Of a DNA stretch of 33,804 nucleotides, positions 3,412-6,141 are shown piece after piece. The notes beneath the pieces are model-generated. The model did not search any database and had not been told where the DNA came from. It was given only the letters and a program-made list of their open reading frames with translations. A program made the translations under genes and the position numbers. Source of the DNA: Escherichia phage 899. Location: sequence record PV533660.1; one strand, given 5' to 3'. Each line of letters starts with the position of its first letter. Position 1 is the first letter of the stretch.

Positions 3412-6141
3412 ATGAGCACGAAATTTAAAACCGTTATCACTACTGCCGGAGCCGCAAAGCTGGCTGCCGCCACTGTCCCCGGCGGGAAAAAAGTAAACCT
3501 GTCTGCAATGGCCGTGGGTGACGGTAATGGCAAATTGCCGGTGCCGGATGCCGGTCAGACGAAACTGGTGCATGAGGTCTGGCGTCACGCTCTGAATAAA
3601 GTCAGCGTGGATAATAAGAATAAAAACTATATCGTGGCTGAACTGGTTGTACCGCCCGAAGTGGGCGGCTTCTGGATGCGTGAGCTTGGTCTGTATGACG
3701 ATGCCGGAACACTGATTGCGGTATCCAACATGGCAGAAAGCTATAAACCAGAACTGGCTGAAGGCTCCGGACGTGCGCAGACCTGCCGCATGGTTATTAT
3801 TATCAGTAACGTGGCGTCTGTTGAGCTGACTATTGATGCCAGCACAGTGATGGCGACGCAGGATTACGTCGATGACAAAATCGCAGAGCATGAGCAGTCC
3901 CGCCGCCATCCTGACGCCACGCTGACAGAAAAAGGTTTTACTCAGTTAAGCAGTGCAACAAACAGCACCAGTGAAAAGCTGGCGGCAACGCCAAAGGCAG
4001 TAAAAGCAGCCTATGACAATGCTGAGAAACGTCTGCAGAAAGACCAGAACGGTGGCGATATTCCAGATAAGGGCGCTTTTCTGGACAATGTTGGCGTTAC
4101 CAGCCTGACGTTTATGAAAAACAATGGCGAAATGCCGCTTAATGCTGATCTGAATACGTTTGGTCCTGTTAAGGCTTATTCAGGTATCTGGTCTAAAGCA
4201 ACATCCACCAACGCAACACTGGAGAAAAACTTCCCGGAAGATAATGCTGTCGGTGTGCTTGAGGTTTTTGCTGGCGGCAATTTTGCAGGCACGCAACGCT
4301 ATACCACACGTGACGGAAATTTGTATACCCGCAAACTCATTGGAACATGGAATGGTAATGATGGACCATGGGGAGCATGGCGCCATGTTCAGGCTGTAAC
4401 GCGTGCTCTAAGTACGACCATTGACCTTAACTCTCTCGGTGGCGCAGAACATTTAGGTCTATGGAGAAACAGCAGTTCAGCAATAGCTTCTTTTGAACGA
4501 CATTACCCTGAGCAGGGAGGAGACGCGCAGGGCATTCTGGAAATTTTCGAAGGTGGGCTATATGGACGCACGCAGCGTTATACAACCCGTAACGGGACTA
4601 TGTATATTCGCGGCCTGACAGCCAAATGGGATGCAGAAAATCCACAGTGGGAAGACTGGATCCAAATTGGTTATCAGACCAGTAGTACCTTCTATGAGGA
4701 TGACCTGGATGATTTGATGTCTCCGGGTATTTACAGTGTGACAGGCAAAGCGACCCACACCCCAATCCAGGGGCAGTCTGGTTTTCTGGAAGTCATCAGG
4801 CGCAAGGATGGTGTCTATGTTTTGCAACGTTACACGACCACAGGAACCAGCGCAGCTACAAAAGACCGTTTATATGAGCGAGTGTTTCTTGGTGGCTCAT
4901 TTAACGCGTGGGGGGAGTGGCGACAGATTTATAACTCAAACTCTTTGCCGTTAGAGTTGGGTATCGGTGGCGCAGTGGCAAAACTCACCAGCCTGGACTG
5001 GCAGACATACAATTTTGTGCCGGGCAGTCTGATAACCGTTCGGCTGGATAACATGACCAATATTCCCGACGGTATGGACTGGGGCGTCATTGATGGCAAC
5101 CTGATAAACATCTCAGTCGGTCCGAGTGATGATTCTGGTTCGGGGCGCTCAATGCATGTATGGCGCAGCACTGTAAGTAAAGCCAACTACCGCTTTTTTA
5201 TGGTGCGTATTTCAGGAAATCCGGGAAGCCGCACGATCACAACAAGACGAGTACCAATCATTGACGAAGCCCATACATGGGGCGCGAAACAGACATTCAG
5301 TGCTGGCCTTTCTGGTGAACTGTCCGGCAATGCGGCGACAGCAACAAAGCTGAAAACAGCCCGTAAAATTAATAACGTTTCGTTTGATGGAACATCAGAT
5401 ATTAACCTGACGCCGAAAAATATTGGTGCATTTGCTTCAGGAAAAACAGGAGACACCGTTGCGAATGATAAAGCCGTTGGATGGAACTGGAGTAGCGGAG
5501 CCTATAACGCAACTATTGGTGGTGCATCAACGTTAATTCTTCATTTTAATATCGGTGAAGGAAGTTGTCCCGCCGCCCAGTTCCGCGTTAATTATAAGAA
5601 CGGCGGTATTTTTTATCGTTCTGCTCGTGACGGTTACGGATTCGAGGCTGACTGGTCTGAGTTTTATACCACAACGCGAAAACCTACAGCGGGAGATGTC
5701 GGTGCCCTGCCGTTATCTGGTGGTCAATTGAATGGTGCTCTGGGTATAGGAACATCCAGTGCTCTTGGCGGTAATTCGATTGTTTTGGGTGATAATGACA
5801 CGGGCTTTAAACAAAATGGTGATGGTAATCTGGATGTTTATGCTAATAGCGTCCATGTTATGCGCTTTGTCTCGGGAAGTATTCAAAGTAATAAAACCAT
5901 AAATATTACGGGGAGTGTTAATCCCTCGGATTACGGTAACTTTGATTCCCGCTATGTGAGAGATGTCAGACTTGGCACACGTGTTGTTCAGACCATGCAA
6001 AAAGGCGTGATGTATGAAAAATCAGGCCATGTAATCACGGGGCTTGGTATTGTCGGTGAAGTCGATGGTGATGACCCAGCAGTATTCAGACCAATACAAA
6101 AATACATCAATGGCACATGGTATAACGTTGCGCAGGTGTAA
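3412..6141 (+). CDS. H: Tail fiber protein H (mosaic: P2-like N- and C-termini, expanded central region)
   Basis: 909-aa ORF; N-terminus MSTKFKTVITTAGAAKLAAA... and C-terminus ...GDNDTGFKQNGDG...RPIQKYINGTWYNVAQV match P2 gpH as recalled; central part differs and is longer than P2 H (about 669 aa as recalled). Confidence 0.85.
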   Translation: MSTKFKTVITTAGAAKLAAATVPGGKKVNLSAMAVGDGNGKLPVPDAGQTKLVHEVWRHALNKVSVDNKNKNYIVAELVVPPEVGGFWMRELGLYDDAGTLIAVSNMAESYKPELAEGSGRAQTCRMVIIISNVASVELTIDASTVMATQDYVDDKIAEHEQSRRHPDATLTEKGFTQLSSATNSTSEKLAATPKAVKAAYDNAEKRLQKDQNGGDIPDKGAFLDNVGVTSLTFMKNNGEMPLNADLNTFGPVKAYSGIWSKATSTNATLEKNFPEDNAVGVLEVFAGGNFAGTQRYTTRDGNLYTRKLIGTWNGNDGPWGAWRHVQAVTRALSTTIDLNSLGGAEHLGLWRNSSSAIASFERHYPEQGGDAQGILEIFEGGLYGRTQRYTTRNGTMYIRGLTAKWDAENPQWEDWIQIGYQTSSTFYEDDLDDLMSPGIYSVTGKATHTPIQGQSGFLEVIRRKDGVYVLQRYTTTGTSAATKDRLYERVFLGGSFNAWGEWRQIYNSNSLPLELGIGGAVAKLTSLDWQTYNFVPGSLITVRLDNMTNIPDGMDWGVIDGNLINISVGPSDDSGSGRSMHVWRSTVSKANYRFFMVRISGNPGSRTITTRRVPIIDEAHTWGAKQTFSAGLSGELSGNAATATKLKTARKINNVSFDGTSDINLTPKNIGAFASGKTGDTVANDKAVGWNWSSGAYNATIGGASTLILHFNIGEGSCPAAQFRVNYKNGGIFYRSARDGYGFEADWSEFYTTTRKPTAGDVGALPLSGGQLNGALGIGTSSALGGNSIVLGDNDTGFKQNGDGNLDVYANSVHVMRFVSGSIQSNKTINITGSVNPSDYGNFDSRYVRDVRLGTRVVQTMQKGVMYEKSGHVITGLGIVGEVDGDDPAVFRPIQKYINGTWYNVAQV
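4250..4930 (+). repeat. Three tandem copies of a ~46-aa coding repeat inside tail fiber H
   Basis: Translations GVLEVFAGGNFAGTQRYTTRDGNLYTRKLIGTWNGNDGPWGAWRHV / GILEIFEGGLYGRTQRYTTRNGTMYIRGLTAKWDAENPQWEDWIQI / GFLEVIRRKDGVYVLQRYTTTGTSAATKDRLYERVFLGGSFNAWGEWRQI share G-h-LE-h...QRYTT...W...W-W; starts near 4250, 4531, 4781. Confidence 0.6.

Follow-up and report, generated by a model that had tools for sequence, protein, structure and literature searches.

The window analysed here is the whole 33,804-nucleotide stretch of Escherichia phage 899 (PV533660.1), and gene H, which encodes the tail fibre protein gpH, lies on its plus strand at 3412..6141. The open reading frame begins with ATG and has 909 codons, in agreement with the protein length of 909 aa given in the initial annotation. 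The genes are arranged in the order J-I-H-G (ORFs, 1970-6669), as annotated in P2, L-413C and vB_YpM_22, and a Caudo_TAP gene, G, is located immediately 3' of H. Its product, gpG, matched Pfam PF02413 (Caudo_TAP, E=1.1e-33) and PHROG 136, and was 94% identical to P2 gpG. A scan of the region 3' of gene G detected no terminator or promoter signal above background. Two cargo ORFs were subjected to a PADLOC scan, which returned one weak match only. The product of 3412..6141 is 100% identical to that of gene H of Yersinia phage GMG73 and to the E. coli prophage protein WP_001774107.1. Many E. coli chromosomes carry gene H, with 100% identity, in a prophage, and about 170 full-length alleles from E. 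coli prophages were found. The features of the locus are as follows.

3412..6141, plus strand: gene H, tail fibre protein, 909 aa plus stop (ORF list, translation)
3412..3864, plus strand: N-terminal tail-collar (baseplate attachment) domain, aa 1-151 (PF12571 Phage_tail_fib, E=1.5e-57)
3919..4041, plus strand: phage tail fibre repeat, aa 170-210 (Pfam PF03406, E=7.6e-21)
4087..5469, plus strand: block common to T2/T6-type gp37, aa 226-686 (BLASTP against T6 gp37)
4117..4395, plus strand: knob domain 1, aa 236-328
4396..4674, plus strand: knob domain 2, aa 329-421 (unit HMM, iE=8.4e-38)
4675..4941, plus strand: knob domain 3, aa 422-510, with more variation than knobs 1 and 2 (unit HMM, iE=1.5e-21)
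4942..5271, plus strand: fourth knob-like domain, aa 511-620 (knob fold)
5272..5415, plus strand: conserved connector motif ...GNAATATKLKTARKINNVSFDG..., aa 621-668 (96-98% identity to L-413C and YpM_22)
5416..5712, plus strand: Mu S'-like distal domain, aa 669-767 (phmmer against 8ju3_A)
5713..6138, plus strand: P2-like distal tip, aa 768-909 (identity to the P2 H C-terminus)
6145..6669, plus strand: gene G, tail fibre assembly chaperone, 174 aa (PF02413 Caudo_TAP, PHROG 136)

Both ends of gpH were compared with P2 gpH from NC_001895 (NP_046775.1, 669 aa). The N-terminal aa 1-204, which include the PF12571 collar, showed 85% identity to P2 gpH. At the other end, aa 768-826 corresponded to P2 H 477-526 with 74% identity and aa 834-909 to P2 H 594-669 with 78% identity, while a P2-specific segment of about 67 aa (P2 H 527-593) is missing from the protein studied here. 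The collar and fibre-repeat Pfam domains and the genomic position are the same in the two phages. Between these ends, aa 205-767 had no counterpart in P2 H. The DNA similarity to P2 detected by blastn ended at nt 4017 and returned at 5760-5849 and 5935-6760, and nt 4018-5759 showed none. The P2-like termini and the mosaic of P2-like ends around a repeat-bearing, non-P2 centre, both proposed in the initial annotation, are thus confirmed by pairwise alignment. Because collinearity with P2 gpH is lost through the centre, gene H is assigned to the L-413C type and not to the P2 type of allele. The centre of P2 gpH (P2 aa 205-471) carries a second Phage_fiber_2 repeat and a Gp34_trimer domain instead, without knob units. 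The product of gene H exceeds P2 gpH by 240 aa, and this excess is explained by the four knob-like domains together with other non-P2 segments. The repeats are absent from P2 H, as had been suspected: an HMM of the knob unit found no match in P2 gpH even at E<=100 with filters off, and hhalign gave a probability of 0.4%. BLAST paired aa 379-410 weakly with P2 438-470 (E=1.3), a match that was dropped, as neither the HMM nor hhalign saw a knob unit there.

The three repeat units are each about 83-93 aa long and together span nt 4117-4941. The motif GxLE(V/I) occurs once per unit, at nt 4252, 4531 and 4780, and so does QRYTT, at nt 4294, 4573 and 4825. Three tandem repeats of about 46 aa at about 4250-4930 had been described from the sequence alone. 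The three copies hold beyond chance, but the unit is about 90 aa, of which the 46 aa represent the conserved C-terminal halves, and the domains extend over aa 236-328, 329-421 and 422-510. Tandem Repeats Finder reported only two trivial arrays in gene H, with periods of 6 and 15, and none at the unit period, and the repeat therefore exists at the protein level only. If the similarity of the units were due to chance or composition, with a centre collinear with P2 H, their alignments should not stand out from shuffled sequences. The comparison of knobs 2 and 3 is weak when taken alone (Smith-Waterman z=3.1; 13 of 1000 shuffled sequences scored at least as high). However, knobs 1 and 2 aligned with 38.6% identity over 83 aa by BLASTP (E=5e-22; Smith-Waterman z=27.9, 1000 shuffles), knobs 1 and 3 gave z=6.1, a score equalled by 0 of 1000 shuffles, and all three units matched the HMM of the family at iE<=1.5e-21. 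With the lack of a P2 alignment over aa 205-767 as well, a chance origin is scarcely credible, and the outcome that the initial annotation had set against its own proposal, a centre collinear with P2 H and insignificant repeats, was not observed.

The name "pyocin knob" is given by NCBI to homologues of gpH. Since the NCBIfam scan assigned gpH itself to no family and the name was attached to homologues only, the assignment was tested by a profile search of PDB sequences and by a fold search. A profile built from 12 units matched 6cl5_A residues 139-208 (E=4.7e-4) and 9b45_2 (E=2.5e-4), values that are significant but not strong. Structure prediction of the repeat region, as suggested in the initial annotation, yielded knob-like antiparallel beta domains: each knob was modelled as a domain of about 85-90 aa with a 5-6-stranded antiparallel beta-sheet and long loops. 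These are models of monomers of a presumably trimeric fibre, with moderate pLDDT (75-77), and the pTM of 0.32 for the four-domain model means that the packing of the domains is not predicted. Domain 4 (aa 511-620) had no detectable sequence similarity to knobs 1-3 in the shuffle test (z<=1.8), and its predicted structure shares their fold. Knob1 and Knob2 of the R1/R2 pyocins (6CL5, 6CL6, 6CU2) are likewise tandem domains of about 85-90 aa with an antiparallel beta-sheet. The pyocin fibre differs in having two knobs rather than four, in its 13-24% identity in structural alignments, and in ending in a lectin-like foot, whereas the present fibre ends in a tip of Mu/P2 type. On sequence profile and predicted fold, knobs 1-3 can be placed with the knob domains of R-pyocin fibres.

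The central region has a close counterpart in T6. By BLASTP, aa 226-686 aligned with aa 105-562 of T6 gp37 (BBF63668.1, 994 aa) with 52% identity (E=9e-164), and the alignment covers the three knobs in order, domain 4 and the connector motif. The unit HMM found three knob units in T6 gp37 in the same order. T6 gp37 contains two matches to the connector motif, one within the collinear block and one at aa 63-106 (66%), and this motif (aa 621-668) may have served as a recombination joint. In the phage collection, 230 records carry the aa 226-686 block; identity is under 60% in about 200 of these, and among the matches listed these more distant records were nearly all Tequatrovirus-type genomes (53-59%). 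The surroundings of the block differ, however. In T6 gp37 a gp36-binding N-terminus precedes it, where gpH has the P2 collar, and it is followed by over 400 residues more and by gp38, a separate adhesin. With its position at aa 105-562 of 994, the block in T6 is distant from the tip capped by gp38, which argues for a role in the shaft.

These data bear on the idea that the repeats arose by recent tandem amplification in this phage lineage and so lengthened a P2-type fibre. The three units are adjacent, paralogous and of similar length, and gpH has 240 aa more than its P2 counterpart, all of which such an event could produce. Yet the paralogues within gpH are just 37-39% identical, no DNA-level repeat was found by Tandem Repeats Finder, and P2 H has no unit to amplify from. 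Each unit is nearer to the T6 gp37 unit at the same position (65, 70 and 45% identity for knobs 1, 2 and 3) than to its neighbours; L-413C gpH, YpM_22 gpH and T6 gp37 each contain three units by HMM; and the whole knob block is present in about 200 further phage records at 53-59% identity. Recent amplification is very improbable, and it is already refuted by the position-by-position orthology. As the block is matched knob by knob in T6-type gp37, the three copies go back to an ancient triplication and did not arise by local expansion. The words "expanded" and "triplicated" in the initial annotation are therefore accurate as to the three copies and not as to an amplification in this lineage.

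Distal to the connector, aa 669-766 aligned with residues 320-417 of the Mu S' fibre (PDB 8ju3_A) with 79 of 98 residues identical (81%, 170.6 bits, phmmer), and Pfam PF12604 gp37_C was found in aa 669-767 at E=7.6e-5, just above the cutoff. Similarity to Mu is also seen at aa 167-238, which match residues 110-181 of the constant part of S/S', and in the last ~75 aa, which match the tip of Mu S (5yvq_A 426-503); the tip is related to that of S16 gp37 (6f45_A) as well. Mu S' (gp52; 8JU3) and S (gp49; 5YVQ) are about 500 aa long and lack the three sequence-related knob units. They are switched by inversion of the G segment; no invertase or inversion system came to notice beside H. P2 gpH, in contrast, has no Mu S'-like domain. 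The repeat-containing shaft was rightly said to differ from P2, but the centre also holds this Mu S'-like domain (aa 669-766), and because it precedes the tip the distal third of the fibre is not simply P2-like.

The closest known relatives are L-413C and vB_YpM_22, in which genes I-H-G are ordered as here. L-413C gpH (NP_839867.1, 913 aa) is collinear, with 81% identity over 914 columns and 6 gaps, and vB_YpM_22 gpH is collinear over the full length with 90% identity. Both share the map of collar, fibre repeat, three knobs, fourth domain, connector, Mu S'-like domain and tip. Identity to these two proteins was 98-99% over aa 1-204 and 97-99% over the distal tip (aa 768-909). Across the three phages that plate on Y. 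pestis, aa 621-909 were 96-100% identical, whereas the knobs were 39-85% identical: identity to the L-413C protein is 45% in knob 1, 39% in knob 3 and 69% in domain 4, and identity to that of YpM_22 is 54% in knob 3. Knob 3 also has the highest column entropy among the knobs. The knobs show saturation at synonymous sites (pS 0.7-0.8; 0.43 for knob 1 against YpM_22), while pS in the flanks is as low as 0.04-0.13. Near-identical ends around knobs that are so divergent at synonymous sites indicate recombination of cassettes, and the saturation indicates that the differences between knobs are distinct old alleles brought in by recombination. Where measurable, dN/dS of the knobs was 0.07-0.17, which together with the saturated dS indicates purifying selection on old alleles and not ongoing adaptive change. 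Module swapping had been named as a host-range mechanism; among the closest relatives it is the knob cassettes that are swapped, and not the tip. The loops of the knobs are more variable than the strands (p=0.0045); this fits a binding role, yet it is the default for any protein.

On Y. pestis, L-413C and P2 vir1 share a receptor, and both require the terminal GlcNAc in the outer core of the LPS (PMC3182234). A fusion protein of L-413C GpH binds Y. pestis cells (PMC7460101), an L-413C fibre fusion retargets the R2 pyocin to Y. pestis (PMC11464564), and the host-range determinant of the P2-like phage P88 was located near the C-terminus (PMC5285337). The host in the GMG73 record is Y. pestis. 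The initial annotation took the conserved C-terminus to suggest the receptor class of P2. Sequence alone does not justify that step, because P2 H has no Mu S'-like domain adjoining its tip; the claim gains its support from the published L-413C experiments (PMC3182234) in combination with the 96-99% identity to L-413C gpH over aa 621-909. From the same identity, those experiments and the Y. pestis host, gpH would be expected by analogy to bind the LPS outer core of Y. pestis through the terminal GlcNAc. Receptor binding probably resides in the C-terminal ~290 aa. The tip is presumed to be the end that binds the LPS core and depends on gpG, and this chaperone, 94% identical to that of P2, would be expected to work there.

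From these results we consider it about 80% probable that gene H is an L-413C-type Peduovirus allele with a P2-type collar, an old knob-bead shaft, a Mu S'-like domain and an LPS-core-binding tip. The mode of action can be proposed by homology with the P2, Mu and R-pyocin fibres. The protein would form a homotrimeric fibre, with a P2-type collar at the N-terminus (aa 1-151) that anchors it to the baseplate. Where P2 has its own type of centre, four knob-like beta domains in tandem (aa 236-620), three of them sequence paralogues and the fourth divergent, would make up a beaded shaft, and the connector and the Mu S'-like domain would lead from the beads to the P2-type tip. The tip, assisted in its folding by gpG, a chaperone of P2 type, would bind the LPS core, where the critical residue in Y. 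pestis would be the terminal GlcNAc. The centre is an old module found also in T2/T6-type gp37 rather than a recent amplification, and H genes that are otherwise nearly identical swap single knob cassettes by recombination. Both the trimer geometry and the shaft role of the knobs are putative. A purely structural role of the knobs is not established, since Buth et al. (PMC6116203) proposed Knob2 of the R-pyocins as a specificity determinant.

Alternatively, the knobs may bind carbohydrate and modulate host range as secondary or reversible receptor sites beside the tip, which would explain their hypervariability. They are by far the most variable part of the L-413C-type fibres, of which both ends are almost identical, and the variation is concentrated at non-strand positions. 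In R-pyocins, diversity maps to Knob2 and the C-terminal foot, and two sites about 100 A apart were proposed (PMC6116203); knob-like domains also occur in saccharide-binding fibres and tailspikes. However, Y. pestis was the host of isolation or propagation for each of GMG73, vB_YpM_22 and L-413C, although their knobs share 39-85% identity, and the low dN/dS (0.07-0.17) with saturated dS is that of old alleles under purifying selection. The block in T6-type gp37 is hundreds of residues away from the adhesin-bearing tip, and the host-range changes of P88 map near the C-terminus (PMC5285337). On balance we regard binding knobs as unlikely. A tentative and rather doubtful form of the idea is that the four knobs are exchangeable accessory glycan-binding beads that tune adsorption to different LPS/O-antigen contexts, with cassettes moving between P2-like E. 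coli prophages and virulent T-even phages and the Mu/P2-type tip providing the irreversible contact with the LPS core. The combination of near-identical ends with knobs of saturated synonymous divergence is compatible with beads of this kind. In the preferred reading, a beaded shaft with an LPS-core-binding tip, the comparison points to the invariant C-terminal ~290 aa, rather than the knobs, as the part that probably recognises Y. pestis.

The domain map of gpH, its homologies, the significance of the repeats, the fold assignment and the recombination signature are established by the present analysis. The mosaic architecture is already known from L-413C gpH: according to PMC7460101, a four-region mosaic with P2-like N- and C-termini and a non-P2 middle was published by Garcia et al. 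in 2008. The gene studied here is real but ordinary, and it carries little weight as a discovery, because it had been deposited, an identical RefSeq prophage protein exists, the mosaic was described in 2008 and the pyocin knob was already named. Its domain map supplies clean boundaries for the engineering of L-413C-type fibres for plague diagnostics and retargeted pyocins, and the knob-by-knob mosaic is a tidy case of sub-gene cassette exchange of temperate Peduoviridae with T-even phages. L-413C itself is a plague-diagnostic phage.

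By megablast, the 33,804-base window matched Yersinia phage GMG73 (OP880301.3, an unannotated record) at 100% identity and comprises its complete genome. One paper mentions GMG73 as a P2-like phage from dogs, isolated on the indicator Y. pestis EV76 (PMC11126057). Over its first 25 kb, the window was 100% identical to a prophage carried by E. coli isolates from humans, and at least 80% of these 25 kb was present in 36 complete genomes; the single prophage-bearing genome looked at in detail (strain MS8320) was that of a urine isolate. The H gene in those E. coli chromosomes was 100% identical, its identity reached at least 99% in 34 records, and its PGAP product is WP_001774107.1, 'phage tail-collar fiber domain-containing protein'. 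The identical prophage in E. coli chromosomes indicates that GMG73 is an E. coli P2-like prophage also able to plate on Y. pestis, and 'Yersinia' in its name reflects the indicator strain, not the natural host. Gene H, encoding the tail fibre gpH, lies between gene I and a Caudo_TAP chaperone gene, an arrangement common to P2, L-413C and vB_YpM_22 (YpM_22).

Features of the H region (window positions)
2871..3401, gene I, adjoining H
3412..6141, + strand, gene H, ATG start, 909 aa
4117-4941, repeat units (knobs 1, 2 and 3) at aa 236-328, 329-421 and 422-510, from motif spacing and alignments
5272-5415, connector GNAATATKL...FDG (GNAATATKLKTARKINNVSFDG), aa 621-668, conserved
6145..6669, Caudo_TAP chaperone gene, 174 aa, adjoining H

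Residues 1-204 of gpH showed 85% identity to authentic P2 gpH (669 aa), and two C-terminal blocks, aa 768-826 and 834-909, aligned with P2 477-526 and 594-669 at 74% and 78%, respectively. The ~67 aa of P2 gpH between these two blocks (527-593) are missing from GMG73 gpH; at window positions 5850-5934 (aa ~827-833), GMG73, L-413C and YpM_22 have a few residues in their place. Residues 205-767 did not align with P2 gpH, so that the centre is not collinear with the P2 protein, whose own centre contains a Gp34_trimer domain as well as a second Phage_fiber_2 repeat. DNA similarity to P2 stopped at nt 4017, returned at 5760-5849 and 5935-6760, and continued through gene G. The P2-like termini and the 909-aa length given in the initial annotation were thus confirmed by the alignment and the ORF translation.

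The centre was also said to contain three tandem repeats of ~46 aa that are not obvious in P2 H. Three repeats are present: BLASTP aligned aa 246-326 with 338-419 (38.6% identity over 83 aa, E=5e-22) and aa 258-326 with 439-506 (33%, E=1.7e-4), and the three pairs had z=27.9, 6.1 and 3.1 when their Smith-Waterman scores were set against 1000 shuffles. The repeat size had to be revised. The motifs DL(N/D), GxLE(V/I), QRYTT and WxxW recur at spacings of 93 and 83-84 aa, which places the units at aa 236-328, 329-421 and 422-510, each about 90 aa long. The 46-aa repeats (~4250-4930) correspond to the conserved C-terminal halves, with less conserved N-terminal halves between them. No repeat was found in gene H at the DNA level. 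The unit HMM detected three copies each in L-413C gpH and YpM_22 gpH and, with filters off and E<=100, no copy in P2 gpH; when the unit profile was compared with P2 gpH by hhalign, the probability was 0.4%. Absence from P2 H was accordingly upheld.

Many unit homologues in a large protein collection carry the NCBI name 'pyocin knob domain-containing protein'. The knob assignment was examined with a profile of 12 unit sequences against PDB sequences, which matched the R1 pyocin fibre at residues 139-208 (6cl5_A, E=4.7e-4) and also a tail fibre of Pseudomonas phage Pa193 (9b45_2, E=2.5e-4). Four beta-rich domains were present in an AlphaFold2 model of aa 225-640 (monomer, moderate confidence, pLDDT 74.6). 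Foldseek matched Phi11 gp45, phage K gp144 and T4 gp34, the same phage proteins listed as having knob-like domains by Buth et al. (2018) (PMC6116203). It also returned low-TM propeller lectins, which were regarded as artefacts.

By tblastn with aa 236-620, the full block was found in Tequatrovirus-type gp37 genes, including those of T6, RB32 and RB9, at 99% coverage and 53-59% identity, the level of about 200 of the 230 phage records matching the block. T6 gp37 (994 aa) aligned at aa 105-562 with gpH aa 226-686 (52% identity, E=9e-164). Knobs 1, 2 and 3 were 65%, 70% and 45% identical to those at the same position in T6; paralogous knobs inside one protein shared 37-39%. By sequence comparison, then, the knobs of gpH and T6 gp37 are one-to-one orthologues by position, so the triplication is old and predates the sharing of the module between P2-like and T-even fibres. 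The 'expanded' centre is not a local expansion.

A phmmer search, exhaustive over 1.84 billion cluster representatives, gave only 227 matches at E<=0.001, fibre-sized proteins of 80-1560 aa in which between one and four stretches matched. Some knob-bearing fibres terminate in an S74 peptidase domain. Those found with aa 225-640 from Atlantibacter hermannii and metagenomes (P0109-P0114) are ~700-aa fibres with one or two knob units at 38% identity and, at the C-terminus, the intramolecular-chaperone peptidase domain S74 (PF13884), so that the cassette of knobs is also found joined to a fibre C-terminus of quite another type. The best representative match outside the gpH and gp37 types, a 1300-aa protein (P0121), has three separate matched stretches, the best being aa 722-986, and suggests that fibres with more than three knob units exist.

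Identity of GMG73 gpH to related fibres
N-terminus: L-413C, 99%
Knobs 1 / 2 / 3: L-413C, 45% / 82% / 39%; YpM_22, 85% / 75% / 54%
Domain 4 (aa 511-620): L-413C, 69%
aa 621-909: L-413C, 96-99%
All regions outside the knobs: YpM_22, 95-100%

By the Nei-Gojobori method, knob synonymous sites were saturated in most comparisons (pS 0.7-0.8; 0.43 for knob 1 against YpM_22), while the flanks gave pS 0.04-0.13 and dN/dS, where measurable, was 0.07-0.17. This combination is the signature of cassette recombination and indicates that the knobs are imported, long-diverged alleles rather than products of recent positive selection. Among 19 dereplicated homologues, knob 3 was the most variable, and non-strand positions varied more than strands (p=0.0045).

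The distal part is also mosaic. The connector is near-invariant among L-413C-type fibres, and T6 gp37 contains it twice, at aa 63-106 and inside the collinear block (aa 105-562); it may be one of several conserved junctions where fibre modules recombine. Residues 669-766, within Pfam gp37_C, matched the Mu S' fibre (PDB 8JU3, residues 320-417) at 79/98 positions (81% identity); P2 H lacks this domain. Residues 783-855 resemble the S16 gp37 tip (6F45), and the final ~75 aa the Mu S tip (5YVQ). A P2/S16 homology patch near P2 481-516 has served others as the fusion point in chimeric fibres (PMC9594776).

By homology, gpH would form a trimeric fibre anchored by the P2-type collar, with four knobs as a beaded shaft, and the connector, Mu S'-like domain and P2-type tip (aa 621-909) would make the receptor-binding end, presumably folded with gpG, the assembly chaperone (94% identical to P2 gpG). 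Published work supports the tip in this role: L-413C GpH fused to a fluorescent partner binds to cells of Y. pestis (PMC7460101), L-413C and P2 vir1 both depend on terminal GlcNAc in the LPS outer core, the heptose region also contributing (PMC3182234), and the host range of the P2-like phage P88 maps near the C-terminus (PMC5285337). Retargeting of R2 pyocin to Y. pestis by an L-413C fibre fusion is cited in PMC11464564. The knobs might instead bind glycans as accessory sites, a role put forward for Knob2 of R-pyocins (Buth et al. 2018, PMC6116203). We consider this unlikely and favour a mainly structural role, because the C-terminal 290 aa are nearly invariant in three phages plating on Y. 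pestis despite very different knobs, and because the block in T6 gp37 is far from the adhesin-bearing tip.

The initial interpretation, a mosaic fibre with P2-like ends and a non-P2 centre, is essentially right in light of the alignments and the L-413C data. The mosaic is real but already known. PMC7460101 summarizes the description by Garcia et al. (2008), in which L-413C GpH is a four-region hybrid, with the N-terminal 207 and C-terminal 137 aa similar to P2 H and a non-homologous middle composed of other enterobacterial fibre segments; GMG73 gpH is its collinear orthologue (81% identity), RefSeq contains its exact sequence, and the repeats match a domain type that NCBI already names in homologues. 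The present analysis adds the correct repeat unit, a fourth, divergent knob-like domain predicted from the monomer model, the one-to-one knob orthology with T6-type gp37, and the recombination signature in the knobs.

Two further ORFs on the + strand, 6942-8327 and 8607-9653, follow G and precede the sheath gene FI, at the site of fun(Z) in P2 and of other genes in L-413C and YpM_22. The former (461 aa) belongs to phrog_37220, of unknown function, with a weak, sub-threshold AHJR-like nuclease match and no PADLOC match; the latter (348 aa), a DUF3800 protein, matched PADLOC PDC-M04A weakly. These ORFs may represent cargo (anti-phage genes or morons) of a variable locus. The GC content at 8700-9900 is 0.35-0.38, lower than the ~0.5 of the tail genes.
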